The position numbers and the translations under genes were made by a program. From Paraspadella gotoi (Eukaryota; Animalia; Chaetognatha): 64,000 nucleotides of DNA. How positions within the stretch are numbered: position 1 is the first letter of the stretch; every line of letters starts with the position of its first letter. The notes under the pieces were generated by a model that did no database searches, had not been told where the DNA came from, and worked only from the letters and a program-made list of their open reading frames with translations. This document shows positions 2,910 to 47,668 of the stretch, piece after piece. The stretch covers positions 13,552,015-13,616,014 of the forward strand of contig CM119267.1 of the NCBI GenBank assembly GCA_051294375.1, given 5' to 3'.

Positions 2910-5900
2910 TTACTGATCACTACCATATCCAGATAAGGAAGTTAATCTTCTTTTTCGTGTTCTTGTTGTTAGCATGGGATTAATAAATGGTTCAAGATCT
3001 TTGTTTCCTTTATGAGGTTCAATGCCATCTATTTTAGGCTTCAACTGAGGCTCTGTTAACTTGTTAAATTTTAAGGATAAATCTGATTTAGGCTTAATTT
3101 GAATGCAACCGTTATATTTTTTAAAATGTCCAGTATTTTTTTCAGGCTTTGTTTATAGTTTTAAAAAGTTTAATTACGTGTGACAGTATTTTTTATGCAA
3201 TGTATTTTTTTTTTTCAAATTAAAACCTTAAAAATTTCTTGAGAGGTATTGATGACTTAAAAAATACATTCAGATTCGTCAGTAAAAAATCATAAAAGCA
3301 TAATATGTTTTAAAATTGGTACAACCAATATAAACTTATCCATTCCAGAGGAGGATTTAGCCTGCCATCCAATTCTCCTCTTCCTCTTCTTTCCTCCTCC
3401 TCCTTCTGCCCCTCAGTATATTTTGTCTAGCGATACATTCTCTCGTTTCTACTCTTCGCGAAATATACCATTATTTTCCCTCTATTTCTTCACGCCTTCA
3501 ATACCCCTCAAGCATTCATTTAATAAATTAGTTATCTTTCCCCCGACTTGGGACAGGCTTTGGTGATTTAAGGCCTCCATCACACTTACAAGATAATGAA
3601 TTAGAAGGTCCAGAGTACCTGGCTTTCCTCTTAATGAAGTAGTATATTTTCAAGAATGTTTCAATTGTAAAAAGGACAACCTCCCACAATGCTCAGAGGC
3701 ACGGATCATCTCACTGGCTTTAAGCTAAGAGCTTAGACATACATATTTTATCAAATATAAATCTTAATTATCCTTCATTTAAACACGATTCATGTTGAAA
3801 TCTGTCTACATACGCAAATGATATGTATAAGCACTTATACATTTAAAAATTTGTACCGCCAATCAGTTTGACGCAAATACTACCACAGTAACAGAAAACT
3901 ATAATCAAAGCCAAAATTTTCAACCTGAGAGTTTTTTACAACACTTTCTAAACCTCCAATGGATTCTTGAAGATTTTTACTATTTGAAGGTTGGTAAAAG
4001 TTATCCTTTAAGTTGTTTTTAGCATCTTTCTGGAACTTTTCCAAAGATAATTCGGTTTCCCCTTCAATAGAGCAATACAAAGTTGCTTCAAAATCATACT
4101 TCTCTTTTCCTTCCGACAATGATTCTGATTTCTCCTCAGTAATATTTTGATCACTTACATCAAATTTTAAATTATTAACTTTTCGCAAACAGCTAACACA
4201 AGATTTTTCAGGCTCAGCTTTAGAAATGATAGATATCTCTGAAAAGTTTGTAATATCAGCTTGGGATAGAGCTTGCTTGACAACAACCGAATTTTCCAGC
4301 GAAGCAATATTATTATGGCTTTTCCTAACTTTGTCGTCTTCAGATTCATCAGAGCTAACGCAAATAATTTCAATCGAAAGATTAGGACCTTCTTTAACGT
4401 TACTTTTTTTTAAAGTACCAACTATCTTTGCTGGAGCAACTTTATCGAAAACAATCGTGGATTTAACATTTGGCTCGGGGTCTTCCTCCATAAAAGCTCC
4501 CGGAGAAGACATTACTTTATAAATTTTTCCCTCAAAAGACGGTGATTTTAATAATGTTGGAGACAGAGGATCTTCTAAACGAGGAAGGTTGATTAAATTA
4601 GTGAAAGAACTCGAGGGCAATTCTAAATTACGCGTGAGTGAAGAACAAGGCATGGGCAAACTTGATAATAATGACCGATTAGGTGAATTCGGCAAAGATC
4701 TAAACGATCTATCTTTACTATTATTGGTTATGCTGCTACTTATGGTAGTATCTGAAAACCAATTTGAAGGTAAATGGTCCGTCTCATTTTTTTCCTGTTT
4801 AGCGTGGCTATCCAATGGTGGAAATGCGTTTTTATTTACGTGGACTGGGTTAATCCAAGAATTCTCTATATTCCCATTTTGCCGAATAGTGCTTGGTTCA
4901 CGCGAAAACTCAGTACCAAGACTGACTGTTCCTGACAAAGATTTGCTCCGATTGCAGCAAATGTTTTCATCTGAAAGAAAAATAAGAAAATAGTTACTAG
5001 TTACAATGCATTGCTCAAAAATAATACTTAGTAGTTACCGTTTGTTTTATTCAGCCCTGGTTTCGTCAGACTGGTGCAAACTTGAGAAATATCTGGTCCG
5101 CGAACAGTATTATTAAAATCAACGGTTGTGGCTTTAGTAGAACCAGCAGCATATCCTTCCTATCAGTTGAAGATTATTTCAACAACTTTTTAAAAATGAA
5201 TCAGTTATACACCACATAAAAATGTTAAACTGATTCATTTTATTACATTCTTTTGATTACATGGTATGTATGTACATTGTATGTATATTGTATAATGTTC
5301 TAAGTACCTAAAAATAATGAAGTAAAATGACGATATTTAGAAAAACCACTTTAGTTTTTAGAATAGAAATATATCTTTTCAGCTCGGGATAATGTTCGCT
5401 TTAATTCTAATTAGGTACAAATTTTTATATATCTATTCACCAGTTTCTCTGTCGACTAATTTGTATTAAATTTTAACAGTGAAATTGTGGCGAATCCTAA
5501 ATTCGCCTCCTGTATAGCTTGGTGAAACTCAGCTCGTCCCATTGGCTTGGACAGCTAAGTACTCATTCACCAACCGTGAGTTCCGGGTTCAATCCCCTCA
5601 CCGTCACGCTGGTTAAAGTGTGATGGTGTCGGCATAAACACGCCAGTGACATGTGGTGGTCACTGCAGGTCCAAAGCCCTGGGCGCCAGCTGTCGGGAGA
5701 TGCATCACACCCTGGGCATCACAAATGTCCCCTCGATGGCATAAAATTCAGAAAAAAAAAAAGATTCAGAGCTTAAAGCATTGAGATTCTAACCCATATA
5801 AAGACCTTATTCTTAGTCATTTTAAAATAACATAAGAGTGATGGAGGCCTTAAACCACCAAAGCCTGTCCAAAGTCAGGGGCAAGATAGCTTATTTATTA

Positions 5901-6777
5901 AATGAATGGATAATTTTTATATTGGTTGTACCAATTTCATAAAAGGTATATATAATTATAAACCATTAAATTAAATGTGTTTTAGCTAAATGTTGTACAG
6001 TACAGTTTTAAAGTAAAAGCTTGAGAGAAACATTTTCTAATGGTGCAAGTTATGTTGAATATCAACCTGAGGGTTACTTGGAGCGTGTACGCCGGAATAT
6101 ACATTATCAAATCGATATGTTGAAAGGCGCGCCATGGAGTTCGATTCATTTCCCTCCATTAGACTGTTGTGTGGCGGTTTTTCCTCCAGCTTGATATCTT
6201 CCCGACGCTTGTGCGGCTGAAAAGAATGAATCCGTCGAACCCCACTTCCAAACGCCATTCGGGAATTTTGTGAAAACCCAGCTGCACTGAAATCGGATAA
6301 GCTCGTCACGCCCTTAACTGATCTTTTTTGCCGAGAATAAATCTTGGGACAGCGGGAAACAGAAAAGGCTCCAACATCTTGCAAGTAATCCCCAGCCAAG
6401 TAATCCCCAGCCAAAGACGACAGGGTCTTGTCGGACGCTTGATTGTAATATTTGTACGGCCTGCGGGAAAAGCGTGTACCTCCCATTCCGCCCGTAGGAG
6501 AAGGGGAACCAGAAGATGAATAAGGGGACGAAGAATGGAAAGAAGGATAACTTGAACAACCGCTTGCGAAAAGATCTGCATCACGTCTGAACGTTAAACG
6601 ATTGACGGAAGGGCGTGTCACGGGGACGACTTCGGGACCACAGCTGATGCGCTCATTCAAAGCTTGTGATAGACGGGTGCGCGATGACAGCGTCTGACAG
6701 ACGTAGGTTTCCTCTTCAGCGTCACTCGTCTCTGTCAGGTCAACAATTAACTCTCGGCCGGGTGGAGGCGTCGACAT
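2910..6777 (-). CDS. Spliced gene for a ~700-aa Ser-rich, probably disordered nuclear protein with SIM-like motifs; exons 6777-6067, 5159-5039, 4970-3925, and a tentative last exon ~3147-2910
   Basis: ATG at 6777 (MSTPPPGRELIVDLTETSDAEEE). GT-AG introns are phase-compatible: CAG|GTTGAT, TAG|GAAGGA, AACG|GTAACT, TTTCAG|ATGAAA. Exon 2 reads EGYAAGSTKATTVDFNN... and joins ORF 3880-4938 in frame. The last exon reads ...TTRTRKRRLTSLSGYGSDQ* (NLS-like). The last acceptor is uncertain. Confidence 0.7.
3542..3584 (-). ncRNA. Second copy of the compact twister motif
   Basis: Reverse complement reads TGT-GATGG-AGGCCT-TAA-ATC-AC-CAAAG-CCTG-TCCCAA-GT-CGGG; shares downstream AAGATA.CT.ATTTATTAAATGAATG with the 5837 copy. 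Confidence 0.55.
5488..5762 (+). mobile_element. tRNA-derived SINE family 1 with internal twister
   Basis: 5' hairpin GGCGAAT/ATTCGCC, B-box GGTTCAATCCC (5586), A-rich tail. Other copies at 44877-45850 (split by a MITE) and 38797-39720. Confidence 0.75.
5608..5690 (+). ncRNA. Type-P5 twister ribozyme, apparently intact; predicted cleavage 5635/5636
   Basis: P5 GCTGG/CCAGC; P2 GTGT/ACAC; GA-TG-G; P1 TG-TCGG-CA; T^AA; T2 GC/GC; P3 AGTGAC/GTCACT; P4 CAGG/CCTG; L4 TCCAAA with T1 CA/TG. Confidence 0.85.
5837..5879 (+). ncRNA. Compact type-P5 twister motif (short-repeat family)
   Basis: GT-GA-TG-G-AGGCCT-T^AA-ACC-AC-CAAAG-CCTG-TCCAAA-GT-CAGG; T2 AC/GT, T1 TG/CA, P4 CCTG/CAGG. Confidence 0.65.
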
Positions 6778-7083
6778 TTTCGACGGCTCATTCACTCATA
6801 ACTGTCACTTCAAGTTGATTTCGCTAAACAGGAAAGAACATTTGACATGACCAAATAAGTCAAAGAAAATAGAACTTAAACAAAAAACTATGAAATACCG
6901 TCAAAAGTTCAATTATAACATAATTGCTACCAGAACGTCTAACTAGATATGTATCCACGATTTAAATTTCAGACGTATCGTTACTATCAGGTCTTCAAAA
7001 TAATGAAAAGGGAAATAATTTAACAATAACTTGCCCCAGTAGACTAATAATGTAACAAACTGAGAAAAAGCTGTTCTCGACTC

Positions 7084-7260
7084 TCACTCGCGATAGTATC
7101 CACGACAGGGAATTAGCGGACGCATCGAAGGAGAGGAGTCGGGTGAGGTTCGACCAACGTTCAAGACCCGACGGTGGGATCCCCTGCCCAGCATCATGTA
7201 AGGATTTCTTTTTAACCACCGATCGAAGCATTCTTCAGATACGCAGGCTTCATCGTTCAT
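7084..7260 (-). CDS. Candidate 58-aa uORF or microprotein in a GC-rich upstream exon
   Basis: ATG at 7260, MNDEACVSEECFDRWLKRNPYMMLGRG...YYRE*. CpG-rich island with GTGAG donor-like site near its end. Cannot be joined in frame to the main ORF (in-frame stops after the acceptor at ~6824). Confidence 0.3.
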   Translation of the reverse strand: MNDEACVSEECFDRWLKRNPYMMLGRGSHRRVLNVGRTSPDSSPSMRPLIPCRGYYRE

Positions 7261-8127
7261 GCGACGATTCTCGTTCGGCTTAGACTGTTTCGTTTGAGGG
7301 ACGTCACACTCATAGTAAAGACAAGTCGACTGACGCTCATAGGGAGGAGAACGGTATTCTCTTGACAATTTAAGGAAATTGGAATGTCAAAATCAGAAGT
7401 TAATTTAATATAAATGAAAATATTTAAAAAGTTCAGTTCGCTTAATTTTAATTTCGTTGATTAGAATATTGGTACCTGAGTAAATCATGATATGATTGGT
7501 GATTTAGGAATTTTATCTTTTGTTTTATTTATTTTTAAGATTTTTTTTCGGGTAACTTTACCATTCAACGTCCGCAACCAACTTTAGCTACCACCGGTCG
7601 GTGCTTTGTTAATCCATTTAATTTTGTTTTCCCTATAATTTTATAATAAAAATAATTGTTTTAAATTTATTTTAATTGCTATTTTCATGTTTGAGTTAGA
7701 AAATGAATTGTTTGTTTACGTACGAGTTTTATTAACAAACAAATTTCAGCTTCAATATAAGCTTTAATCAGCGCAAAAACGAATTTATTTGTGAAACAAA
7801 TACTTTAACAGACTTTTTCTTTCTTCAAACTTCAAAGTCTGTGAAAATATTTCTTTCACAAATCAATTCGTTTTTGCGCTTATGAAAGTTTACATTTAAG
7901 CCGAAACATGTCCGATATTTATATTTTTTAATAAAACTCGTACATAAACAAACAAGGAAAGGAAAGAAAAAAAAAAAAATTTTATGTTATATTTTTTAAA
8001 CGGTTAGCTATTGGGTTATGGTCGGTTAGGGATTAGGGTTTGTTAGGGATTAGGGGTGGTTAGGGATTTGTAATAAAAAGTTTTTCTACCCTTACCAATG
8101 TCTTTTTTTATTTTTGAGTAGCGAGAT

Positions 8128-8736
8128 TAGAGCCAAACTTTGTCAATGGGGTGGGTCAGAAGTTTGATTTGGGAACCTTCCCAAATGAAACTTCATACAT
8201 TTCTGAGAAAGCTTTCAAAGGACCAAAATTTTCTAAAATGGCAAGAAGCACTAGTAATTAATTTTTAATATTTATTTATAGATAGGAAATGACAAAAAAA
8301 TTTTTTTAAATTTTGTATTTTTAAAAGCAGATTCAGATAGCTTATTAAAAGTTGTCTACACAAAGTATAATTCTTTTTTCAATATTTTGATGATAAGTGG
8401 GTCAGAATTAGGAAAAACCTAAAAAAATCATCATCATCATTATCCGATGATTTTAATAGTTATTGCTAATTTTTAATAATAAAACATCAAAATTTTAAAA
8501 AGTTGTAATTACATTTTTTGTTTAACTTTTTAAGCTCTATCAGAATCAATTAAAAAAACTTAAAATATCTAAAAAAATTTTTTGACATTATATAGCAATA
8601 TAATAATTTTAATTAACAAATTACTCATGATTCGGAACATTTTTGAAAAAAAATATTTTAACACAATAACTAATACTAATAATGGATTCGTTTAATGCTG
8701 TTTCCATTAAAATTTAAATTTGGTCGGCTACCGCTA
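8128..8736 (+). mobile_element. ~600-bp TAG...CTA element with 7-bp TSD
   Basis: TSD GCGAGAT on both sides; copies at 23209-23761 (-) and 47669-48276. Confidence 0.8.
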
Positions 8737-8929
8737 GCGAGATTTCTATACGTCGCTGATAAGAAGCGGAAAAAAAAATAACCGACCGCAAAATCCCGAT
8801 CGGCGAATGTAAAAAGCCTTTTTTAGTCGGATCTGCTGCAGATCCCGACTCTATAATTCACTTTGTCGGTCCGTCAAAAAAAAGGAGAAGAAGATTTTTT
8901 AACTGCTTAGATTACATGGGACAATTTTA

Positions 8930-14000: not shown

Positions 14001-14384
14001 AACTATTAAGAATTTCACATTTCATTCTTGAAAATTTTTGAGTTGAAACTTGAGTTTAACCCAGATGAATTACAATTACGATGGTTAGAAATTTTGTCAC
14101 CGTTTCAAGCTACTTTTAGCCTGATTTTTTACATATTTTGATTATCTTTGCGATCTTACTGATGAAAAAAAGTCATGGTAAAGAGAGCCTATGTTCGTTC
14201 GGAAAAGCCAAGAGAGACAAGCCACTTGATAATCCATTCTCTGCGTTGATATGCTAACCCTCACTACCCCTAATCCCTAACCACCCCTAACTCAATTGCT
14301 TACCGTTTAAAAAATATAACAAATATATATATATATTCTTTTATTTTGATGCATTATTTGTTTAAGGTACAAAATGAATTGTTT

Positions 14385-14610
14385 ATGTACAACGTGTTTT
14401 ATTAAGAAATATCAATTTCGGACATATTCCGGCTTCAATGTAAGCCTTCATAAGCGCAAAAACGAATTGATTTGTGAAACAAATATTTTCACAAAGTTTG
14501 AAGAGAGTCTGTAAAATATTTGTTTCATAAGTCAATTCATTTTTGCGCTGATGGAGGCTTACATTAAAGTCCGAAATTTATGTTTTTTAATAAAACTCGT
14601 TGTACATCAA
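14385..14610. repeat. Palindrome of two oppositely oriented decayed hammerheads (also 7715-7950 and 10790-10990)
   Basis: ~105-bp arms; GCG-CTGATGG-AGGCTT...GAAA on + and GCG-CTTATGA-AGGCTT/AAGCC-GGAATATGTC on -. Confidence 0.65.
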
Positions 14611-14639
14611 CAAACAATTGATTTTCTACCTCAAACATA

Positions 14640-20198: not shown

Positions 20199-20538
20199 CG
20201 TATATAAATAAAATCAATGAAAATATTTTTCAAAACTTTTAATTTTTTTTTTAGCTTCCATCAAGAAAGAACAAAAACCAAGATAATGAAATTATCAATA
20301 AAGATATATAATTTAAAGAATTGCTGAGTCAATAAATTTTGAGCAGAAATGAAGGTGGGTGGGCTGGGGGCATAAAGAAAGCCATTTTGCTGGTGGGTCC
20401 GGAGAAGAGCGGGAGTTTAACCTGGAGGTCTCTCTATACAAGCTTTCTCAGTGGAGGCGATTGGTGGGTCCGGAGAAGAGCGGGAGTTTAACCGGGAGGT
20501 CTCTATACAAGCTTTCTCAGTGCGGGAGGGGGGGATGC

Positions 20539-20745
20539 ATGGTGGACTAAAATCCACCAACCGTTCAGCGCGCCATTGGTGCCAGAGGCAAGTCATTCGC
20601 CTCCCAACCCAAAGGTCCAGGGTTCTAGCTCGGTGGTCGCAGTTAAGGGGCGGGGCGCTTAACCCGCCTGTAACACGGTGTTACAGCCTAATCAAGCTCA
20701 GGGACTGATTATATTGAATGGTTCGGTCACTAACAATAATAATTA
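20539..20745 (+). mobile_element. SINE family 2 copy with degenerate twister (20640-20707)
   Basis: Colinear with 21361-21570; retains the TCAGG half of P4 and a CAGT/ACTG P5. Confidence 0.7.
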
Positions 20746-20758
20746 CTGTTCTCTGTAT

Positions 20759-20845
20759 TGGTGAGCCCTTCTCGTGAACACACAACCTTTTCATTCTCAA
20801 CACCCACGGTGCGCTGCCCTTCTACCGACCAAGCGCCACGAGCTT
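20759..20845 (-). pseudogene. tRNA(Trp)-like decayed sequence ending GGGCTCACCA
   Basis: Reverse complement AGCTCGTGGCGC...GGTAG...GGGCTCACCA; acceptor halves pair and CCA is encoded. Confidence 0.4.
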
Positions 20846-21017
20846 CAATATCTACCCTTGCAACAGGCTCTTTCATCTACAAAGGATTAACACATATGCA
20901 GAATTTATCATAATTCGATGTTCTGAAATGATAATATGATTTACTAAAAGATTTATGGGTGGGACCGATGGACCGACAAAGTGGATTATAGAGTCAGAAT
21001 CTGCGATAAGCAGATCC

Positions 21018-21265
21018 TGTGGCAGTATATTCACACTGCCTCATGTCCATTATCGTTCATCCAATCTCATTGGCTCAGAGGGGGAACACACCATCCCAGG
21101 CATTGTTCCATCCTCAGTCCTAACGACTTCCCTCTGCGTTGGCAAAGCGAAACCATCCTAGTGTAACCGCGCCAGTGACTGGAGGCGTCACTGAGGAAGC
21201 CCCCAAAGCCCACAGTGAGTTGCCCCATCCCATTGGGCATGACAGGCAACCCGGCTGTTGCCATA
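21018..21265 (+). mobile_element. Solo LTR of the same family, with a twister motif deleted in loop L4
   Basis: TGTGGCA...TGCCATA, high similarity to 58101-58358; flanks ATCC/ATAC (4-bp TSD with one mismatch) inside a HINE terminus. Confidence 0.75.
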
Positions 21266-21360
21266 ATACAACTAAAAACTTGCTTGGATCAGAATTTTTT
21301 GACTTCACTACAAGAAAGTAAAAATATTATATTTTTCATTTTTTGTGCTTTAAAAATGGT

Positions 21361-21570
21361 ATGGTGGACTAAAATCCACCGTTCATCAGCGGCCATTGGT
21401 GCCAGAGGCAAGTCATTCGCCTCCCAACCCAAAGGTCCGGGGCTCTAGCCCGGTGGTCGCCTAGCAGTTAAGAGGGACGGGGCGCTTAACCCGCCTGTAA
21501 CATGGTGTTACAGCCTGATCCGAAGCTCATATTGAACGGTTCAGTCACTAACACATAACAATAATTACTT
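21361..21570 (+). mobile_element. tRNA(Gly)-like SINE family 2 with internal twister motif (21473-21529)
   Basis: 5' hairpin GGTGGA/TCCACC, A-box-like TGGTGCCAGAGG, CGCCTCCCAA anticodon arm, B-box-like motif. Twister AGG-GA-CG-G-GGCGCT-T^AA-CCC-GC-C-TGTAACA/TGTTACA-G-CCTGA-TCCGAA-GC-TCA. Confidence 0.7.
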
Positions 21571-23208
21571 TCTCTTCAATGGGTTATTTCTACTTTTTTT
21601 TACGGGGTGTCTAGGGAACAGTGGGCAATAGCCTGAATAAATACATGAAAATTTTTTTTCATGCTCCTAAGATATTATACTAATTAACAAATATAAAAGA
21701 AATATTCCTCTCAAATTTTTACACAATGAGTTTCAACCCAGGTCAGAGAAAGTAAAATTATGCCTTTTTTATATATTATTTAACCACATTAGTTTCGACG
21801 ACCTTTTCATTTTCCAAAAACTGAACCAGGCATTTACAAAATTAATAAAGTTAGGGCTAAAAAAGGTAAGGAAGTTAAAAAATGAAAGTGGTTTAGAGGT
21901 TAAGCGTCAAGGATATAAATACTATATTATAAATAGGGTTAGGGGTAAGTGTAGTTAAAGATCAAGTTTTCAAGAGTAGGTGTGGTTATGGGTTAAAAAA
22001 GAGGCGGCTGAGCAGTAGGTGAAAATAAATGTTCAACCATTATTTTGTAAAACAAATCGGGCGGATAAGCGGAAGAACCAGAGTTAGATACATGGGAGGA
22101 GAGAGAGAAGATACGGAAAAAAAGAAGGAAACAAGGTAATCGGAGAAAGTGAAGGGAATAATAGAGATTTAAAAACGAAAAGATTTTTAGGAATTTCTTT
22201 TCTTTGAGCTGAGATTCAATCATATTTAAATAAATAATAATAAATATAAAACAGTAAAAGAACTTATTTTCGAGTTTAATTTTTAGCAAGTGCAAAGTCT
22301 GGAGAGACATTATTGAAGGTACTTTTGTTTTACTTTTAGCCCGCATAAGCGAGCAGTTTGATCGAATGCGACCTCTCTAAACACTGTCAACATTCCCAGA
22401 CAAAAGACAAAGTGAAACTTGAATCAGACTGACAAAGTGAGGTAAAGACTAAAGTGAAGTAAAATGAAGTCAAGTAAAATAAAATAATAAAGTAAATATA
22501 TATTAAAAAAAAATTATTCTGATTGATATATTTAGAAAAAAAAATCCAAGAAAATCTCGGATGGCGATAATAAAAGTTTTTAGAGGGAAAAAAATAATCA
22601 GAGAGAGAGAGAGAGAGAGAGAGAAAGAAGCAAAATCGTTTTCAGCAGCAGAAGCACCCAGAAAAAAAGAAAGAAATCAAAAGTCAGCAGCAGCAGAAGA
22701 AGAAAAGAGAGAAAAAGAATACGCCCATTCAGAGCCAGCTGCAGAGAAAGAAATCAAAAGGCAGCAGCAGAAGCAGCAGGAGAAAAAAGAGAAAAAGAAT
22801 AAGCCCCTGCAGAGCCAGCTGCAGACTCGTTTTTTTCCCTTTCTGTATAATTTATACTATAAATCAGTGACTAGGGAAAAGAGAGAGGGAGAGAGAAAAG
22901 TAATTAAAAGAGAAAAGAGAGAGAGAAAGAAATAGAAAAATAAAAGAGAAAATTGGTTTGTTTTGATAAAACGTAAACAAAACATTTAATAACTGTCCAG
23001 ACTCAATTTTAAACACATCGATGATAAGAAGCTGTATATAAATTTTCAGCTTCATACACCCAAATTTAATCATAAAAAGGCGATCTATAATTTGGAACGC
23101 CGACAACGACGACGACTACGCCACTTATGCGCAAAAGTGTTACAATATCGTCGCAAACGCAAAGCGATTGCGACGATAAAAAAATGTTTTTTAAAATTGC
23201 AATATAAC

Positions 23209-23761
23209 TAGCGGTAGCCGACCAAATTCAAATTTTAATGGGAACAGCATTAAACTAATCCATTATTGGTATTAATTATTGTGTTAAAATATTTTTTTTG
23301 CAAAAATGTTCCGAACCATGAGTAATTTGCTGATTAATATTATTATATTGCTATATAATGTCAAAAAATTTTTTTTGATATTTTAAGTTTTTTTAATTGA
23401 TTCTGATAGAGCTTAAAAAGTTAAACAAAAAATATAATTACAACTTTTTAAAATTTTGATGTTTTATTATTAAAAATTAGTAAAAACTGCTAAAATCATC
23501 GGATGATGATGATGATTTTTTAAGGTTTTTCTCAATTTAAACCCACTTATCATCAAAATATTGAAAAAAGAATTATACTTTGTGTAAATTTTTTGACATT
23601 TCTTATCTATAAATAAATATTAAAAAAATAATTACTAATGCTTCTTGCCATTTTAGAAAATTTTGCTCCATTGAAAGTTTTTTCAGAAATGTATGAAGTT
23701 TCATTTGGAAAGGTTCCCAAATCAAACTTCTGACCCACCCCATTGACGAAGTTTGGCTCTA
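23209..23761 (-). mobile_element. 7-bp-TSD element copy
   Basis: TSD ATATAAC/ATATAAC. Confidence 0.8.
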
Positions 23762-24807
23762 ATATAACTAAGCATTGAATGAATAGTTACGGAATTACTT
23801 TTCATATTTAACTACGTAAAATTAAAATAATTCTGAATTCATTAAAAGTTCAGGACTCAATTATATTAAATTCTCGCCGATAGTTGTGTGCAAAATTTCA
23901 GCCTTTGCGAATGATTACTTTAATAGGTTCAATTGCCACACAGACATAGTAGAAAGAAGCACATTCAAAGCTTCATAATTGTCAAAAATATAAAAAAAAT
24001 GTATAACCACTCAGCAAAAGTAAAATTTTGCCCGAATTTAATCTTTTAATCAGTAATTATTTGAAGTGAGATTTTGACATGCAACTTTATGAGATTGCGA
24101 CGCACATCCTTCGTATAATGAGAGATTATCATCACGAAGACGACGGAAATTGACGATCGCCTAATAATAAGAATTTTAGTAAAAATTATATAGCCCATTA
24201 AAAATAAGAAGTTTTTTGATAAATTAATTTTCTATTCGTTATTCAAACTGAGTAGCTATACAAAAATTATTTTTCTTAGCTAGATAATCTAAAAAAATTT
24301 TACAAACTACAGAACGAAAGTAACACCCTGACCCCTGATTAAGCCTTTAGGCTAAGTTGTCAGTCGAGTTCATTTCTTTTACATCTAACATAAAAAACTG
24401 GCTTAATGCTTAAATTTATAACTCGTCTGAAATGAAAAAATGAATTAAACGACGTATGTATACCTTTTTATCAACAATAATTAACATTAACGTTTAATAG
24501 CAATCCCAAAGCCACACAACAAATTTTTTTGCAAATTAACCAAACTTTTTAAAGCGATTATGGATATTTATCATCAGTCTGTACTTTAAAGAAATGTTCA
24601 CGAGACGGCCTTGAAAGATGTGAAAACGAAACATTAGGATAAAAAACCAAAAAAAGTTAAAAATATAGTAATAACAAATTGTAATTAAAAAATCGTTGTA
24701 AACACAAAAATTTGTTTTTCCTAATACCAAAATACAACGAAAAGAAAGGAATATAACAAAGTCCAGTAACTACAAAGAAATTATTATTAAAAATCTTTGT
24801 GTATAGA

Positions 24808-35200: not shown

Positions 35201-37987
35201 TCACTTTAAATAACAAAATGTTATCAATCTATCTAAAGTTGTTTCATTACTTTCAGCCAATGCGAGAATTTAACATGTGTATATCTTAATCAACAAATTC
35301 CTCTTTTTCTCATTCTCATTTTTATTTCTCTCCTTCCAAAAACAGTTAAATTTTAGCTGGCTTGGTTGATTATGGCCTCCACTCAAATTTACAAAGAAAT
35401 AATGACATAGAAATGACATCGTAGCTCTCAATCACAACTTAAGCGATCACTTTAAACCAGAAACCTAAGCTTTTGTTTTCAAATGGTTTAACCACGTTCA
35501 TCCAGAGGACTCTCTCGATTGAAATCTTTTAAACTGTTTTTTTCCTGTTTGACTCNNNNNNNNNNNNNNNNNNNNNNNNNTTTAAAATTGTTTTTCTCTG
35601 TTTACTTTAATGATTGTTAAACTGAATGATTTTCAGTCTTGATTTGTCCTATATGTGAAATTAAATATTCTTATTCACTTTTACTACAGAAACGTTTTTA
35701 TTTCTTTATCCTCAATGTATGAGTTACATTATAAGAAGATGAAACAAAATAAGTGAATCGGATCAAGTATTGTTCTACATCAAAAATGTAAACAAATAAA
35801 CTATCAATTCTCTATCGATTCAAACTCAATCATTACAAATCAATGTAAATAAACTGAATCAAAACAATTCGATATTTAACGCCAAAGATTTTCCTGCAAC
35901 GTCGCCATGAAAGATACTTCAATATTTGCCAACGTCTTAGAACTCTAACGTTACAGTTTGCCACGGTACTTCGTCACGCTGTTGCTGGCCTCAGTCACCA
36001 GGCCACAAATCTAAATAACAATATGACAAATTCATTTTTATTTTTTTTATGAATGGGAAGTTTTCTCTGGCTTACTCCCTTGTGTCATAATTATTTAATA
36101 TTTTAGAGGTATTTCAAAACCTTATATAATTACTATATTTTACTTTTTTCAAATTCTTTCAAACAAAAATATCATAAAAACATTTTATAATAAAAAAATA
36201 AATTGATCGAATGATTTTGAAAAATATTGAAAACTTAAGAAATAATGGATTTCGAGTTAGGAAAAAAATTTTGCAATTTCTAAAAAAATCAGCCTCTAGC
36301 CTTTCGGATTTTTTAGAGGCTGATTTTTAAATTTTTTTGAATATTTTGATTTTCTATGCAAAACATTATTCTCAATGAGCATAGGTCGACGAACTTTTTT
36401 TTCAATAATTTGAAAAAATTTCAAACTTTTCTAATTAGGCTTTTTTGGGGAAATAAATAAATAAATTGTATAACAATGGGTACATCTAAAAGTGATATGT
36501 CTCTAAATGATAACAACATTTTCTTCAAGTTTTATTTTTTGAAATTCAAGTATTGTACCATAGAAAATATGTGAGATACACTTGCTTTGCCGAAATTTTT
36601 AGTTAAAGATTGTACTGCGTAGTTTTTACTTCCTATGATATCACACTTTTTTAAGAATCAATCGTAATTCGTAGTAGTTTTTATATAAAAAAGTGTTATA
36701 AATAAAATGAACAAATCCGAGTAATTGATATAAAACTTGTCAATTTATAAAGATTTGATGATGAGAACCAAATTTAATTTTTTAACTTCCTATATTTCTA
36801 ATTGTAGAAAAAACGACGACTACACAAAGAAGCCATTCTAAACAATAATCACGCCAAGATATTGTTATCCGCTTAAGCCCGTCTGGCGAGATAAAAAAAC
36901 ATGAACTCTTAGCATTAGGTTATATGGCCCCTTACAGAAAAAATCAAGGCCCTCTTAGAACCTGAATCGATTTTCAAATAGAAGAATGAATGATTATATG
37001 ATTAAAAATTCATTGCGTTTATTCTCTCTTTTCTTTGTTTGGTAATTAGACGAGAAAAATAGAATTCATAAAGCTGACAACATGTATAATAGGGTGGACT
37101 GATGAAAGATTGAGTGATTGAACCATTATTTTTTTGCTGCCTTTGGACATTGTAATTAAGAAATTTTAAATTCTTTTAAAATTTTGTTAGTAAACAGTAT
37201 AGTAAATTTCAGTTATTTATGTAATTAATATCCTTATTAACAATCGTTAATTCAAAAATATTTTATTTTATTTTTAAAAACAGATTTGGATTCGCCGTAA
37301 AAAAACTAAGAAACTTTTATAAAATATGTTATACGTGATATTCTAATGGTTTAGATTCAAAAAAAGATAAATACGTTTTTACATATATAAGTTTCTACTA
37401 CAAAGAATAAAAAAGCTTGAATTTTTACCTTTTTTCAAGTTTCAAACGCTGAAGATGACAGAATTTTTGATAACATGTTTTATATTATTTTGATTCAACT
37501 TTTTACGGAAGAATCTGAATCTTATTAAAAGTTAAAAAAAATTATTTTTAAAATTTACTTATTTTATAAGGATATTACTACGAAATAATTATATTTTACT
37601 ATTTCTGTTTCCCGAGACAATATGAACAAAATATTTTTTTGTACTACTTATATCATTCAAATATTTTTTTGTTCTTGAGTGCTCTTTAAAATAAATCGTT
37701 GTTGAATTGAAATATTTTTCTCGTCTGATTAAAAATTTCGCGACCACCCTTTTGGCGGTCTCGCTTTCATAATATCAATAGTACTTTACAATACAGTGCT
37801 ACAATATAATACATAAAATAATACAGGTCAAGATAGCTTATTGAATAAGATGATAATCTTTATACAACTATTGGTTTACCGCCAATTTATAGAAAGGCGT
37901 AATAGAAAAGCAAAGTTAGATAACATAATCGCACAAGGTTGTCTCAATAAAAAAAAACAAATTGACTGAATAGTGAATAGAATGTTA

Positions 37988-38241
37988 TTTATTTCTAGCT
38001 TAAACAACTTTCGTTTCTCGCACCGGTCTTAGTGATTTTCCGATGATGGCAAAGCGACCGACGTGACGTTCAAACCACTCCAGAGGAACTTCGTGAGTGG
38101 CATTAAAAGGACAAACCAAATAGGGGTTTCCCCGATTACTTCGACGGCACTTTAGCAGATGATAGGGAGTCGTTTCAAACGCACGCTGTGACATTCGGTT
38201 AAGGGCATTGAACCAAATTTTCGGGGATCAGAAAGGTTCAT
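37988..38241 (-). pseudogene. Frameshifted second copy of the GTSF1-like gene
   Basis: Near-identical to 44084-44338 with 1-nt indels; retains YHLLKCRRSNRGNPYLVCPFNATHEVP. Confidence 0.7.
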
Positions 38242-41200
38242 GGTTAATACTTTTTTTCCTCACCGATCCCTTTAAACGTTGTAAAGATAAAAAGTTCCAA
38301 CAACAGAAGTCAGTTATGTAAAACTGGACCTGTAGAATATAAAAAAAGTTGCACATGACTTTTTTTGATAAATAAATACTAAACAGACCAATTATATATC
38401 ACTAATCACAGTTCACAATATGGCAAAAAGATTCGTGTTGGCACGTATGACTTGAGTTAATCTCTAAGGTTTTGAATAAATAAATAATAAGTGAATGAGA
38501 CTTAAATTATGGCAATCGAGTAACGAGGAGTTCAACAATATCTTTTTATAGAACTAATTTTATAAATAAGGAGGTATAGATAAGTTAAAATCTGTAGTTA
38601 TCAAAAACCCTATATTGTAAAGAAACTATTCACGACAGTTAACATTACAATAATTCACAAGATAATAAATTTTTATTAATATTCATATTGAAGATCAGAA
38701 TAGCTTTTCAACTATTCACCAGAAGATCAATTATTTATTACAAAAGAAACATCGCTTTTCAGTCATAGAAAAGTAAAGCACATTTTAATGGTATTGTCGG
38801 GCAATCCTAAATTCCGCCTCCGTGTAAAGCTTGTGAAACCAGCTCCATGGCTTGACAGTAATAGCAGGTCATTTCGAGTACCTTTGTGATGAACACGGGC
38901 TAGGAAGAATAGAATTGTGGTGTCCATATATCAAATGGCTATGAGGATTTATCCACCTAAGGCGATAGATAGGCTGTGGCAAAAAATGGTAAAATATTAT
39001 ATTTAATAATTTTTGTTTGAAGTTGCACAGACGTTATCTTTCCACAAAAAACATTTATTACCTCAAAATTATATCATTTATTCATAATTATTGAGCTTCA
39101 TGAACACAGCAGTTAATAGTCAATTTGAAAAATTTTAAAATATAGAAGTAACGATAAAACCATCATCTCATTCTTCAACCATGCTTAATTATTGCAATTT
39201 GATCAATTTTATGTTCTAAAATGTAGTTTTTTTCTTATGTTTAAAACTGTCAATGACTACTAAAAAAATTTTTGAAAAATAAAAAAAAAATTTAAGCATT
39301 TTTTGACCCCCCAGGGGTCCACCCCCAGGGGCCCGTTTCTCTTTGTCAGGGGTTGAATATCAAAATTCGCCTCGATTAGTTCCATTTAGTTATGTCATTA
39401 GCACTCTAATGTAAAATTGTATTAAAATTCCATTGGCGTAGTTTGGTGCGGGAACAGTTTTTGGTCAGCATAAAAAGGCGGTACCAAACATTTTATAATA
39501 TGAAGCCTCTGTACTCGGTTTAAAACAACCGCGAGTTCCGGGTTCAATCCCCTTACTGGTCACGTTTGGTTAAAGTGTGGATTGGTCTGTCCGGGCATAA
39601 AACAGTCCAGTGAATGGGCCAGTGGTACACTTGCAGGTCCCAAGGCCATGAGGCCCCCAACCTGTCGGGAGATGCCTCCACACCCGGGACATCACACATG
39701 TCCCCGTGCCAAGTGTTAATTTTCACAGATCTTAGTTATGTTAACTTTTTTGCACTATTTAACGTTTAGAGGGACTGTATGATAATTTGATACAATGCGG
39801 CATTACAATTTTTAAATTTTATTATTTTACTTTTTGACCAAATATTATCAAAAATTTAAAAATAAATTAAATACTTTGTAGTGAACATTTACATTTTGCA
39901 TTTGCCTAAAAATCAATTATTTATAATATTTTTTTCGAATTCAAAGTTGTACCCCGGTTGAGCAAATCAGTGACACAAATAAGAAATTATTGCCAGTTTA
40001 CTGCATTGAAAATAAACGTAAACTTTTTTTTTTATTAGATAGAGAATGCTGAGACGTTTGTTCTGTTAAAATTTTAATTTAAATTGATATTTTTTAACAA
40101 CTAGAAATTATTAATTTTTTTGCAAGATGTCAAAGCTCGTCAAATATTGATGGCTCATCGCATTCTTTAATAATCAAACACAATGAATAACTTTTATTCA
40201 TATCAAGATCACAGTTAAATACTTTTCAGCCTTATTGACCTCTACAGAGGTCCGGAAGCAGTTCTGGTTGTATACGAAGATTCATTCTCATGCCTTGTGG
40301 CAAGCAATTTTAAGCAGCTTGGGACTGAACAACATTTAAAGCATCAAAATTGGGCTAAACATGATTGTTGATGATGCAGATATTGTTGCGCACTGAGCAT
40401 AATTGCCAAAAGTTTAAACAACATGGGAATTAGGACACATGAAAAAGGCGTAAACGTTACTGTTCCGTGCATAAAAAAAATTCACCTGTTACAATATTAT
40501 TATATTTCTTTTTATTTTTTTTAAACGTTATGTTTCATATTTTGCATATCCAAATATCAATGCAAAATTCTTTTTTTGTTTTTAGATATTGTGACTGATT
40601 ATAGGGTGAAAGATGATAATTTTTTTTTTAAAAAGTTACTTTATTCATATTTATTCATAGAATTGTTAATAGAAAAAAAAATAAAAAAAATAATAGCTTA
40701 CCAATATTAGTGGTTATGTCTCAAATAGAGAACGAAAAAAAACCTCATTTAAAAAATTCGATCGGGAATGGGCGTAACTAAGGCTTACCAATGGCATTCC
40801 TCACGCCGATTGTTCTCTCAAATAATTTTTTTATTAATACATTTGAAAGGGAAAAAAAGAAAATTTTGGGAATGCAGGGTTGCAGAAAAGGGTACAGATA
40901 ATTTGGACCTTATTGACCTGATAACCATGACCTTTTATATCTTGGAAATGGGGCAGTAATGAAATCTAAAAAATTTCATCATTTAAGTCAGGTCAATATT
41001 GAAACCCTTTCCAATGGGCTATTACGAGAAATATTTTTTCTTATTTAAAATGGATAGATAAATAATAGAATTAAATTCCTTGATGCTATATTTAAAAAAA
41101 AATTATCAATACAATTTTAACTCAATAATGTTTTTGCTTTGCTCACATATTGTTACCTGCTATATAATTTTTACAACTTTATTATTGATAAAACAAAGCA

Positions 41201-44083
41201 GATGGTCAAGCTTTAGTTTGCAGGTTAAAAGATAATGAAAAATGACGATTTTTTCTTCAGCAGGACAAGAAGGTAGATGTCCAGATGTTTATATCAAGCT
41301 GAAACAATTTTTGCTATTTATTATTTTTAATATTTTTAAAAATACATTTTATTCAAGCTATAACATAAATTTTTGCTTGTTTTTTACTAACTGAAAATAT
41401 AAGCCAATTATTATCGCAAATTAAAAAAAAAATTTCATAATAAACAAATATGTAATGCAGTTTTCCTTTTTTCAAATTATAAAAGAAAAAGAAAAAATCA
41501 TATGCTTTCATTGAAATTTTCTAAAGCAAAAAAACTGTTTGTCTATACTGTTGAATCTGATTTAAACAAAAGCTTGTGTAAAAGATTTATGGATTTAATT
41601 TAATTAAAACTGCCTTTTAGAAGGTGTCCCATGATTAGGGCCTTTTAATTTGATACCACAATCCTACCTTGCTACCTCTTTCTTTCAAAAAGTTATTTAA
41701 AAAAATAACTTTTTCTTTAATGATTGTTAACTGAATGATTTTCAGTCTTGATTTGTCCTATCTTGAAATTAAATATTCTTATTCACTTTTACTACAGAAA
41801 CGTTTTTATTTCTTTATCCTCAATGTATGAGTTACATTATAAGAAAGATGAAACAAAATAAGTGAATCGGATCCAAGTATGTTCTACATAAATAATGTAA
41901 ACAAATAAACTATCAATTCTCTATCGATTCAAAACTCAATTCTTTACAAATCAATGTAAATAAACTGAATCAAAAACAATTCGATATTTAACGCCAAAGA
42001 TTTTCCTGCAACGTCGCCATGAAAGATACTTCAATATTTGCCAACGTCTTAGAACTCTAACGTTACAGTTGCCACGGTACTTCGTCACGCTGTTGCTGGC
42101 CTCAGTCACCAGGCCACAAATCTAAATAACAATATGACAAATTCATTTTTTATTTTTTTTATGAATGGGAAGTTTTCTCTGGCTTACTCCCTTGTGTCAT
42201 AATTATTTAATATTTTAGAGGTATTTCAAAAACCTTATATAATTACTATATTTTACTTTTTTCAAATTCTTTCAAACAAAAATATCATAAAAACATTTTA
42301 ATAATAAAAAAAAAATTGATCGAATGATTTTGAAAAATATTGAAACTTAAGAATAATGGATTTCGAGTTAGGAAAAAAATTTTGCAATTTCTAAAAAAAT
42401 CAGCTCTAGCCTTTCGATTTTTTTAGAGGCTGATTTTTAAATTTTTTTAGATATTTTGATTTTCTATGCAAAACCATTATTCTCAATGAGCATAGGTCGA
42501 CGAACTTTTTTTTCAATAATTTGAAAAAAATTTCAAACTTTTCTAATTAGGCTTTTTTGGGGAAATAAATAAATAAATTGTATAACAATGGGTACATCTA
42601 AAAGTGATATGTCTCTAAATGATAAAACATTTTCTTCAAGTTTTATTTTGAAATTCAAGTATTGTACCAATAGAAATAGTGAGATACTACTGCTTTGCCG
42701 AAATTTTTAGTTAAAGATTTGTACTGCGTAGTTTTAACTTCCTATGATATCACACTTTTTTAAGAATCAATCGTAATTCGTAGTAGTTTTTATATAAAAA
42801 ATGTTTATAAATAAAATGAACAAATCCCGAGTATTGATATAAAACTTGTCAATTTAAAAGATCTTGATGATGAGAAACCAAATTTAATTTTTTAACTTCC
42901 TATATTTCTAATTGTAAGAAAAAACGACGACTACACAAAGAAGCCATTCTAAACAATAATCACGCCAAGATATTGTTATCACGATTAAGCCCGTCTGGCG
43001 AGATAAAAAACATGAACTCTTAGCATTAGGTTATATGGCCCCTTACAGAAAAAATCAAGGCCCTCTTAGAACCTGAATCGATTTTCAAATAGGAAGAATG
43101 AATGATTATATGATTAAAAATTCATTGCGTTCATTCTCTCTTTTCTTTGTTTGGTAATTAGACGAGAAAAATAGAATTCATAAAGCTGAAACATGTATAA
43201 TAGGGTGGACTGATGAAAAGATTGAGTGATTGAACATTATTTTTTTACTGCCTTTGGACATGTAATTAAGAAATTTTAAATTCTTTTAAAATTTTTGTTA
43301 GTTTAACAGTATAGTAAATTCAGTTATTTATGTAATAATATCCTTATAAAATCGTCAAATTTCAAAATATTTTTATTTTATTTTTAAAAACAGATTTGGA
43401 TTCGCCGTAAAAAACTAAGAAACTTTTATAAAATATGTTATATGATATTCTAATGTTTAGATTACAAAAAAAGATAAATACGTTTTAACATATATAAGTT
43501 TCTACTACAAAGAATAAAAAAGCTTGAATTTTTACCTTTTTTCAAGTTTCAAACGCTGAAGATGACAGAATTTTTGATAACATGTTTTATATTTTTGATT
43601 CAACTTTTTAGGAAGAATCTGAATCTTTATTAAAAGTTTAAAAAAAATTATTTTTAAAATTTACTATTTTATAAGGATATTACTACAAATATATTATATT
43701 TTACTATTCTGTTCCCGAGACAATATGAACAAAATATTTTTTGTACTACTTAATATCATTCAAATATTTTTTTTGTTCTTGAGTGCTCTTTAAAATAAAT
43801 CGTTGTTGAACTGAAATATTTTTCTCGTCTGATTAAAAATTTCGCGACCCCCTTTTGGCGGTCTCGCTTTCATAATATCAATAGTACTTTACAATACAGT
43901 GCTACATATAATACATAAATAATACAGGGTCAAGATAGCTTATTGAATAAAGAGATAACTTTATACACTATTGTTTACGCCAATTTTATAGAAAGGCGTA
44001 ATAGAAAAGCCAAGTTAAGATAACATAATCGCACAAGGTTGTCTCAAATAAAAAAATCAAATGACTGAATAGTGAATAGAATG

Positions 44084-44338
44084 TTAATTTATTTCTAGCT
44101 TAACAACTTTCGTTTCTCGCACCGGTTCTATGATTTTCCGATGATGGCAAGCGACGACGTGACGTTCAAACCACTCAGCAGGAACTTCGTGAGTGGCATT
44201 AAAAGGACAAACCAAATAGGGGTTTCCCCGATTACTTCGACGGCACTTTAGCAGATGATAGGGGAGTCGTTTCAAACGCACGCTGTGACATTCGTTATAA
44301 GGGCATTGAACCAAATTTTCGGGATCAGAAAGGTTCAT
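44084..44338 (-). CDS. GTSF1: Gametocyte-specific factor 1 / Asterix-like double CHHC zinc-finger protein (piRNA pathway cofactor family)
   Basis: Two C-x5-H-x9-H-x3-C fingers: CPYNECH..H..C and CPFNATH..H..C, preceded by DPENLVQ. May splice to an open 56-codon exon at ~42121-41950 (TTTAG|ATTTGT). Confidence 0.8.
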   Translation of the reverse strand: MNLSDPENLVQCPYNECHSVRLKRLPYHLLKCRRSNRGNPYLVCPFNATHEVPAEWFERHVVACHHRKIIEPVRETKVVKLEIN

Positions 44339-44950
44339 GGTTAACTTTTTTCCTCACCGATCCCTTTAAACGGTTGTAAGATAAAAAGTCCAACAAAGAA
44401 TCAGTTATGTAAAACTGGACCTGTAGAATATAAAAGAAAGTTGCACATACTTTTTTGATAAAATAAATACTAAACAGCAACAATACTTCTAATACACTAC
44501 TTCACAGTTCACAATTGGCAAAAAGATTCGTGTTGGCACGTGACTTGAGTCTAATCTCTAAGGTTTGAATAAATAAATAAATAAGTGAATGAGACTAAAT
44601 TATGGCAATCGAGTAACGAGGAGTTCAACAAATCTTTTTTAGAACAATTCATAAATAAGGAGGTATAAAGTTAAAATCTGTAGTTACAAAAAACCTATAT
44701 TGTAAAGAAACTCTTTCACAACAGTTAACATTACAATAATTCACAAGATAATAAATTTTTATTAATATTATATTGAAGCTCAGAATAGCTTTTAACTATT
44801 CACAGAAATCTATTATTTTTACAAAATAAACATCGCTTTCATCATAGAAAAGATAAAGCACCATTTTAAGGTATTGCGGCGAATCCTAAATTCGCCTCCC
44901 GTAAAGCTTGGTGAAACTCAGCTCATCCCATTGGCTTGGACAGCTAAATA

Positions 44951-45658
44951 GCGAAGGTTTCATATTATAAAATGTGGTACCCCTTTTTTGTGACCAGAAC
45001 ACGTTCCGAGAAAACTAAGGAATAGAATTTAATGAAATTTTGCATGCGGAGTACCAGTAGTGATACAAATGGAACTATCGAGGCGAATTTTTACATTCCA
45101 CCTCCAAGGCTGAGATAAGGGGCCCTGTGGGCAAAAAATGGTCAAAATATTTATAAATTTTTTTAATAATTTTTGTTTTGAACAGTTGCACAGACGTTTA
45201 CTCTTCCACAAAAACATTTATTACCTCAAAAATATTCATTTATCATAATTATTAGCTTCATGAACATCAGCAGTTAAAGTCAGATTTGAAATAATTTGGA
45301 AAAATTGGAAGTAAAACGATAAACCATGCATCTTCATTCTTCAACCATGCTTAATTATTGCAAATTTATCAATTTTAGTTCTAAAATGTTTTTTTCTTAT
45401 GTTTAAAACGTCAATGCTACTAAAAAAATTTGAAAAATAAAAAAAAATTGAAGCATTTTTTGACCCCCCAGGGGTCCACCCCCAGGGCCCTGTATCTCTT
45501 GTCAGGGGTTGAATATCAAAATTCGCCTCGATAGTTCCATTTATATAGTCATTAGCACTCTAAATGTAAAATTTCATTAAATTCGATTGGGTAGTTTGGT
45601 GGGAACAGATTTTGGTCACAAAAAAGGGGTACCACATTTTATAATATGAAGCCTTCTG
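44951..45658. mobile_element. Tc1/mariner-type MITE inserted at a TA inside SINE family 1
   Basis: ~45-bp TIR (CA)GAAGGCTTCATATTATAAAATGTGGTACCCC; the empty site AAGTACTC is seen at 5558. Confidence 0.8.
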
Positions 45659-45705
45659 TACTCGTTTAACAACCGCGAGTTCCGGGTTCAATCCCCTTAC
45701 GGTCA

Positions 45706-45792
45706 CGTTGGTTAAAGTGTGATGGTGTCGGCATAAACAGTCCAGTGATATGGGGTGGTCACTGCAGGTCCAAGGCCATGAGGCCCCCAACT
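45706..45792 (+). ncRNA. Degenerate twister in a SINE family 1 copy
   Basis: Same layout; P5 covaries to GTTGG/CCAAC; substitutions in P2/T2 and P4. Confidence 0.6.
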
Positions 45793-47050
45793 GTCGGGAG
45801 ATGCCTCACACCCAGGACATCACACATGTCCCCCGTTGCCATAGTTTAATCTTTTCAAGATCTTAGTTATGATTAACTTTTTTGCACAAATTTTAACGTT
45901 TAGAGGGACTGCTATGATAATTTGATAATGGATTACAATTTTTAAATTTTATTATTTTATTTTTGACCAAATATTATCAAAAATTTAAAAATAAATTAAT
46001 ACTTTGTATGAACATTTACATTTTTATCATTGCTAAAAATCAATTATTTATAAATATTTTTTTCGAATTCAAAGTTGTACCCCATGAGCCAAATCCAGTG
46101 ACACAAAAGAAATTATTGCCAGTTTACTGCATTGAAATAAACGTAAACTTTTTTTTATTAGATAGAGAATGCTTGACGTTTTTTCTGTTAAAATTTTATT
46201 TAAATTGATATTTTTTAACAACTAGAAATTATTAATTTTTTTTGCAAAGATGTCAAAGCCGTCAAATTGATGGCTCATCGCATCTTTTAATAATCAAACA
46301 CAATGAATAACTTTTAATTCAATATCCAAGATTACAGTATAAATATTTTCAGCCTTATTGACCTCTACAAGGTCCAGAAGGGCAGTTGGTTTATACGAGA
46401 TTCATTCTCAGGCCTTTGGGCAAGCAATTTAAGCAGCTTGACTGAACAACATTAAAGCATCAAAATTGGGCTAAAATGATTGTTGAGATGCAGATATGTG
46501 CGCACTGAGCATAATTGCAAAGTTAAACATGGGAATATATGAAAAGCAGCTGTGGCTAACAGTATGATTTGTTTTCTTTTTAAAACATGGGTAGTTTCAA
46601 AAAAAATATAGTAACCAATACAATACACCAACTGTATCAATTTTTTTTAACAAAAGAACTCTCTCTCCCTCTCACACATTTCTTGTAAAGTGAAAATTGC
46701 TTATTTTTCACAAGTGATGAAGTCTTGAAACAAGTCGAAACACTGTTTTTCTAAAAATAAAATCGTTGTTTGTTCAAACTAAAACTTTTTCGAACAAAAG
46801 AACTAAAGTAAATCAGAGGGGAGTAATGCAGTTGTTCTGAAGTTCCAACTTATCACATATCATTTTTTTTTTAAAGTAATTTGTCACTAAAGAAGTCTTG
46901 CAAAAAGACTGACTGTGTAAGAAACCGATGAAAAGATGAAAAGATTGTTCCACACAAGTTCGGGAGGCATTTTAAGCATTTTTATACCCATTTTAATAAA
47001 TATTTTGGTCATTTCAAAAACGTCAATAATTTTTCTATCAAATGGTATAA

Positions 47051-47565: not shown

Positions 47566-47668
47566 TTTTTCTTAATTTTTGGTAGGTTATGAATGATTAA
47601 TTTTTACTTCGTGTCAATCGATTTGGCTCACGGGGTAGTTAAAAGCACGGATGATAAAGCGCTTATGC

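Follow-up and report, generated by a model that had tools for sequence, protein, structure and literature searches.

A putative miniature LTR retrotransposon family with a tRNA-like domain and a type-P5 twister inside its LTR

The window analysed here, a stretch of 64,000 nucleotides of AT-rich, repeat-rich eukaryotic DNA, carries two copies, A and B, of a short repeat family (F2) at the place where the original prediction had put them. The copies are 82.5% identical over 229 aligned bases, and no third F2 copy was found in the 64-kb window (BLAST, word size 7, E ≤ 1). In both, a 5′ hairpin comes first and a short tail last, and between them an outer stem encloses a tRNA-like domain followed by a type-P5 twister. 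The features at the locus are as follows.

20391 to 20537 (+): stretch resembling an internal region, with a 71-bp tandem duplication and two variant TGG 10-mers (at 20391 and 20462), ending in the polypurine-tract-like run
20522 to 20537 (+): polypurine-tract (PPT)-like run plus 2 nt, directly 5′ of copy A; 8 of the 64,000 positions in the window qualify as such
20538 to 20757 (+): copy A, putative LTR flanked by the PPT-like tract and a PBS-like motif, without a target duplication
20540 to 20559 (+): 5′ hairpin of copy A
20559 to 20567 with 20715 to 20723 (+): outer stem around the tRNA-like domain and twister of copy A, from the sequence and the MFE fold
20568 to 20640 (+): tRNA-like domain of copy A, more decayed, called by ARAGORN at ps75 only
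20640 to 20707 (+): type-P5 twister of copy A, predicted cut 20660/20661, broken in L1, P4 and L4
20759 to 20769 (+): PBS-like 11-mer starting with TGG, 1 nt 3′ of copy A
21356 to 21359 (+): left 4-bp target-site duplication of copy B, matching 21579–21582 at 4 of 4 positions
21360 to 21578 (+): copy B, putative solo LTR within another repeat
21361 to 21382 (+): 5′ hairpin of copy B, z −4.47
21389 to 21461 (+): tRNA-like domain of copy B, with a 7-pair acceptor stem, T-arm, weak A box and B box
21465 to 21529 (+): type-P5 twister of copy B, predicted cut 21487/21488, 20 of 21 descriptor points
21579 to 21582 (+): right 4-bp target-site duplication of copy B; a paralogous empty site has the 4-mer once

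Away from these repeats, the window holds two exons with U11-48K-like CHHC zinc fingers on the reverse strand (44087–44353 and 38003–38227; Pfam places two tandem fingers in one of them). They are duplicated within a 5-kb segmental duplication (35601–40430 and 41711–46536) and resemble the piRNA factor GTSF1/Asterix. A calcipressin (RCAN) exon lies at 59121–59360 on the reverse strand (Pfam E 3.5e-14). With the tandem zinc fingers, this exon points to an animal as the likely source of the DNA. MITE-like elements of several families, with long internal inverted repeats, occur at 8126–8737, 23204–23767 and 47663–48281 and at 7666–8053 and 14254–14638, and one such family gave a spurious Rfam match to MIR1888 under the gathering score.

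To describe the family beyond the window, contigs from six public runs were aligned to copies A and B. In run X4, 11,503 contigs align on copy B, and the family ends sharply at 21360 (71 contigs) and at 21578 (70 and 35 contigs) with unrelated AT-rich flanks; its length is about 230–234 nt. F2 is a high-copy family, cautiously put at hundreds to thousands of copies; since contigs overlap, their depth when added up (about 4 million, compared with about 200–350 for a single contig) does not equal a copy number. Run X9 and the DNA run X5 have contigs in common that agree in both length and depth, and X9 is therefore uninformative on expression. Between 21403 and 21522 the changes C>T and G>A make up most of the X4 variants, and many of them fall on CpG sites, which suggests methylation-driven decay of older copies. 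One contig with a head-to-tail junction of F2 was seen, and exact 24-nt patterns gave no match in metagenome, genome or viral collections.

Both copies do start with the 5′ hairpin that had been reported, and at the z-score listed above 0 of 200 shuffles folded equally well. In the tRNA-like domain the acceptor stem is complete, its pairing being retained by both of the two commonest variants (20% and 26% of depth), and the B box has one mismatch; from this sequence the domain is likely a Pol III promoter. It was matched neither by ARAGORN at default settings nor by Rfam, and BLAST against phages returned only 18–21-nt matches (E 8). At the relaxed ps85 setting ARAGORN calls the family-majority form tRNA-Gly(CCC); the background at this setting was 39 calls for 2000 shuffled versions of copy B, and other parts of the window gave 7. 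We relied on this call alone, since at ps75 or lower the twisters are named 'tRNA' as well and 2000 shuffles yield 554 calls. The anticodon stem keeps 3 of 5 pairs, with CCC in the anticodon position; as this stem is broken, 'Gly' is positional only and does not prove the origin. Of the tRNA-Gly-like head that had been described, the tRNA-like domain stands, with 'Gly' in this positional sense; it starts at base 34, after the hairpin and the outer stem, and not at the 5′ terminus.

The stems given for the twister in the original prediction (P3 TGTAACA/TGTTACA, P4 CCTGA/TCAGG and T1 CG/CG) are correct, and the L1 (GA..G, UAA), L4 (UC..AAGC), T1, T2, P2, P4 and P5 elements that characterise the type-P5 twister were all found in the family-majority form, with T1 exchanged for a compensating pair. 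Copy B has an 11-nt deletion that removes the last part of P4 together with the P5 3′ strand. The view that the damage of the two copies is complementary, and that a consensus would be complete, was borne out by the family contigs, which are mostly intact at every lesion site of A and B. At the two point lesions of copy A, 96% and 98% of the X4 depth differs from it (92 and 101 contigs), 52 X4 contigs break off at its L4 lesion, and 71 contigs read past the deletion of copy B, carrying the sequence of copy A.

The conserved twister nucleotides, whose absence from the consensus would have spoken against the prediction, are kept. On a 21-point descriptor, based on the Rfam Twister-P5 consensus and written after the elements had been seen, the majority form scores 21 of 21 and copy B 20 of 21, with a background of 72 matches of at least 20 and 4 of 21 in 198 shuffled 64-kb windows. 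The same descriptor missed copy A and the three copies of the sister family F3, and 4 of its 10 matches in the window (scores 19–19.25) look like noise. The Rfam Twister-P5 model (RF02684) matched neither F2 copy at E ≤ 10 and scored two sister twisters at 25.8 and 22.2 bits, under its gathering score of 37.6 bits; a hammerhead was not matched in the window. Few core variants reach a frequency of 4%, and CpG decay accounts for most of them. The predicted cut precedes the AA of UAA, as described for twisters in PMC8501958.

Four more twister types (F1, F3, F4 and F5) occur in the window, two of them within LTR-like repeats with the following features.

5486 to 5743 (+): putative F1 solo LTR (the first family of the original prediction), with an intact P5 twister at 5609–5690 and a 4-of-4 target duplication
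21018 to 21265 (+): putative F3 solo LTR between copies A and B, with a decayed twister and a 3-of-4 target duplication
57602 to 58358 (+): F3 LTR–internal–LTR arrangement, with one LTR to 57870, a 230-bp internal region and the other LTR at 58101–58358

The two F3 LTRs are 94.4% identical over 216 nt, and the internal region opens with the PBS-like 11-mer (57873), 2 nt past the LTR; the left end of this element is ill-defined, a clear PPT is missing, and its target duplication matches at 1 of 4 positions. Its internal region contains three 28-bp tandem repeats (57907–58003), and the region before copy A is likewise tandemly duplicated (71 bp). A second F1 LTR (44875–45843, +) is interrupted by a 700-bp element with inverted ends (44945–45662), of which a second copy lies at 58359–59058, and a poorer F1 copy is present in the segmental duplicate (39526–39705). 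F1 and F3 have P3 and the 3′ portion of the LTR in common (5693–5743 and 58315–58358; 70% over 84 nt), and their 5′ halves differ; like F2, each has a 5′ hairpin and, by eye, an outer stem. F4 is a minimal P5 twister (5830–5890, +; 3513–3588, −) with no P3, T2 AC/GU and a palindromic P1, lying in an AT-rich context with no tRNA-like domain nearby; its forward-strand copy opens a 2-kb stretch (5901–7931) that is duplicated at 12824–10770. F5 is an old decayed twister (2762–2838, +), whose L1-P1-P2 core is related to that of F2 (23 nt, E 5e-4).

The statement that F2 is unrelated to the first family holds at the level of BLAST (only 10–13-nt matches, E 0.25). The proposed recurrence of one modular design, made up of hairpin, tRNA-like domain and P5 twister, in sequence-unrelated families is upheld, with compensatory changes in both pseudoknots. 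The T1 pairs are CG/CG in F2, UG/CA in F1 and F4, and CC/GG in F3, and the T2 pairs are GC/GC in F1–F3 and AC/GU in F4 and F5. This covariation of both pseudoknots across the five window types is the strongest support for the twister; it was read by hand, since MAFFT left the cores of the several families out of register with one another. P2 of F2 has 3 nt only on one strand (a bulge or an A-C mismatch), being one base short on one strand as it is in F4 and F5; folding prefers a competing hairpin over P2, and the twister z-scores are −0.1 to −1.5. In our judgement the F2 twister very probably is, or was, an active ribozyme.

The surroundings of the copies bear on the kind of element to which this ribozyme belongs. 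The empty-site paralogue of copy B is a contig of run X1 (depth 857), and the target duplications of four solo copies from three families match at 4/4, 4/4, 3/4 and 3/4 positions against backgrounds of 0.87% (4/4) and 7.4% (3/4), the ends of the sister-family solo LTRs being assigned from shared termini. Across 6 loci the longest flexible flanking repeat is 5 nt. The junction of the PPT-like tract with copy A is itself high-copy, its depth in run X4 being 318,044 in the bin 20523–20533 against 976 one bin upstream, and 2,343 upstream of copy B; this bin holds about 19–20% of the hairpin-region depth in X4 and X3, 9% in X9 and 0.7% in X8. The PBS-like 11-mer occurs twice in the window (20759 and 57873), each time just 3′ of an LTR end. 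The regions to the left and right of copy A are unlike one another and, beyond the PPT, low-copy; no LTR lies beyond either of them, and a complete two-LTR F2 element was not seen.

F2 ends on its 3′ side without a poly(A) or simple-repeat tail. The LTR termini are TA...CA in F2 and TG...TA in F1 and F3, rather than TG...CA. No T4 run occurs inside the F1, F2 or F3 LTRs, and one that lies 31 nt 3′ of copy A could stop Pol III. Reverse transcriptase, integrase and gag were not found by a Pfam scan of the 79 non-repetitive stop-to-stop ORFs of at least 75 aa in the window, 3 of which match host genes. Copies A and B are not the LTR pair of a single element, because B is flanked by a separate target duplication, has a separate empty site and lacks a PPT. 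A MITE or Helitron-type element was likewise ruled out, since inverted repeats are missing from the ends and the tRNA boxes, twister, PBS and PPT are all on one strand.

Based on these features, we consider it quite probable that the F2 repeat is in nature an LTR of TRIM type. The 4-bp target duplication, the PPT before the LTR of copy A and the A and B boxes in the LTR are as in TRIMs, and the short two-LTR form with a non-coding interior (less than about 1.3 kb) was seen for F3, not F2. A hammerhead in each LTR, the mark of LTR retrozymes, is replaced here by a twister. The best reading of the sequence would therefore be a miniature non-coding LTR retrotransposon (TRIM) that combines the tRNA promoter of Helenus with the ribozyme-in-LTR design of plant retrozymes, the twister replacing the hammerhead, in a host that is likely an animal. 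F2 would most likely act like an LTR retrozyme and be built like Helenus, a member of neither as these are defined.

How such an element may spread can be modelled on the retrozymes. Somewhat favoured, in our judgement, is that the F2 RNA is made by Pol III, cut by the twister in each LTR to unit length, circularised, and copied by a Gypsy-type partner. Transcription would start at about base 20–30 of the 5′ LTR and run through the internal region into the 3′ LTR, and the twisters would then cut in both LTRs to leave one permuted LTR plus the internal region, with 5′-OH and cyclic-phosphate ends. An RtcB-type ligase, which circularises animal retrozyme RNA (PMC7229834), would close the circle, a host tRNA would prime at the PBS, and the partner reverse transcriptase would run round the circle. 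By this the 5′ hairpin region upstream of the promoter would be rebuilt, and solo LTRs, monomers and multimers could arise, as they do by the ribozyme-in-LTR route described for plant LTR retrozymes (PMC4918200). Insertion by integrase would produce the 4-bp duplications. A Pol III start at about base 20–30 could not copy the 5′ hairpin, a problem that would vanish if the repeat is an LTR.

Other readings account for part of these observations. The SINE assignment of the original prediction was not upheld, and a tRNA-derived SINE with an internal ribozyme, like the schistosome Sm-alpha hammerhead repeats, and mobilised by a LINE appears very unlikely: the tRNA domain starts at base 34, the ends are fixed without an A-rich or simple-repeat tail, PPT- and PBS-like motifs flank the repeat, the sister F3 has two LTRs, and the duplications are of 4 bp. 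Target duplications of SINEs are variable and usually longer, 7–20 bp. The size, the tRNA-like domain, the high copy number and the mainly single dispersed copies would suit a SINE, together with the one head-to-tail junction contig, and Pol III SINE-like repeats with hammerheads are described in PMC6765202. As pointed out in Kojima 2018 (PMC5786205), a SINE is truncated if its ribozyme cuts downstream of the head. Such an internal cut would destroy a SINE; within an LTR it would be useful. That the repeats are non-LTR retrozymes, or Penelope pseudo-LTR derivatives, spreading as tandem units is extremely improbable. The head-to-tail junction would fit, since animal retrozymes are described as tandem 170–400-nt units linked to Penelope elements, but they carry type I hammerheads, with no PBS or PPT detected in them (PMC7229834, PMC4918200), and F2 has fixed ends that bear no relation to its cut site.

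The twister could also be an inactive passenger, acquired with the promoter from a captured SINE or RTE 5′ end. Kojima proposes that Helenus arose through insertion of a SINE into an LTR (PMC10886601), twisters are described at RTE 5′ ends (PMC8501958), and both window copies are broken. Against this, the family majority is intact with few core variants, both pseudoknots covary between families, and the RTE twisters described in PMC8501958 cut at the element 5′ end, unlike the internal P5 form here, so we regard a passenger as highly improbable. A working twister in a TRIM with linear RNA, in which the ribozyme trims the ends or limits the copy number and strand transfer is that of an ordinary LTR element, would fit all the LTR evidence. 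Cassandra and Helenus are described as mobile without a ribozyme (PMC10886601), and the short P2 may weaken cutting. Cutting in two LTRs would, however, remove the terminal redundancy that linear reverse transcription needs (PMC4918200), and the LTRs here have no T4 terminator; a linear route is unlikely in our view.

If the twister of the putative TRIM does cut in both LTRs, its P1 may matter. In all five window twister types P1 is self-complementary over 6–8 nt and loop-less, with a duplex energy of −6.3 to −11.0 kcal/mol and no hairpin by itself, where the background is 12.4% self-complementary 4-mers in these elements; the five types are not independent, F1 being related to F3 and F2 to F5, and perhaps represent three independent lines. 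This suggests that the twisters could cut as a dimer between the two LTRs, and a short monomeric P1 is possible. In amphibian hammerheads a palindromic tetraloop is described as leading to action as dimers (PMC7229834), and the palindromic short helix that needs dimers there resembles P1 of F1–F5, which lies in a twister instead. More speculatively, a loop-less palindromic P1 would pair the twisters of both LTRs, so that cutting would need both and solo LTRs would cut poorly. The full model, in which animal LTR retrozymes with Pol III tRNA promoters and type-P5 twisters use a palindromic P1 to force a two-LTR strand swap, a both-ends-or-none cut and the release of a circle, is tentative and, on our estimate, somewhat doubtful.

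Among known systems, the plant LTR retrozymes described by Cervera et al. (2016, PMC4918200) resemble F2 in being non-coding, in having a ribozyme in each LTR, and in showing a 4-bp duplication, solo LTRs and multimers and a presumed Gypsy partner; their PBS and PPT compare with the PBS-like and PPT-like motifs next to copy A. They carry a type III hammerhead, whereas F2 has a type-P5 twister and a tRNA-like, putative Pol III promoter in the LTR; their LTRs are 300–400 bp long against about 230–260 bp here, and for F2 a circular RNA is a prediction. The host of F2 is likely an animal, whereas a 2026 preprint (10.64898/2026.07.22.740005) still places LTR retrozymes mainly in plants. Helenus/TRIMp3 (Kojima 2024, PMC10886601) is a TRIM with decayed tRNA-like A and B boxes in the LTR, as in F2, and shares with F2 and its sisters the 4-bp duplications in animals, a PPT, many solo LTRs and several families per genome; its (T)TGG PBS compares with the PBS-like TGG 11-mer of F2 and F3. 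Its internal regions are described as starting with (T)TGG and closing on runs of purines, after which TG follows in some cases; most of its LTRs are TG...CA, and others start with TA or end in TTCA or CATA (PMC10886601). The tRNA part of Helenus usually lies near the LTR 3′ end before a T run (PMC10886601), unlike that of F2, which lies in the 5′ half and is followed by the twister with no T run. The accessible text of that paper describes no ribozyme in Helenus, the word 'twister' occurring 0 times in its main text, and four twister L4 8-mers gave 3 matches in its supplement, in internal regions only and in no LTR, where line breaks could mask matches (PMC10886601).

The schistosome Sm-alpha repeats share with F2 a tRNA or Pol III element and an internal ribozyme (PMC6765202), but these repeats and the animal non-LTR retrozymes differ from it, as described in PMC6765202 and PMC7229834, in the hammerhead, the tandem units, the lack of a PBS and PPT, and the larger duplications. 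In the RTE element Perere-3 (Liu et al., 2021, PMC8501958) a twister likewise serves a retrotransposon, yet Perere-3 is an autonomous non-LTR element in which the cut sets the 5′ end, and the F2 twister is of P5 type and internal to the LTR. A twister in an LTR, or a dimeric twister, was not found in the literature searched, mostly non-subscription, and Repbase or Dfam may hold the family under another name.

Most eukaryotic twisters are without an assigned job. It is hard to see what use the P5 form, which cuts in the middle of itself, would have in a SINE or at the start of a LINE, and a location in an LTR could give it a purpose. If the reading proposed here is true, LTR retrozymes would extend from plants to, likely, animals and from the hammerhead to the twister, and would be joined to the Pol III TRIMs, and solo LTRs of this kind would be prone to mis-annotation as SINEs or tRNA pseudogenes. 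Abundant small circular RNAs would be predicted in this organism, and if the dimer model also holds, the family might represent a natural circle maker built from Pol III, twister and RtcB, and the first natural double twister.
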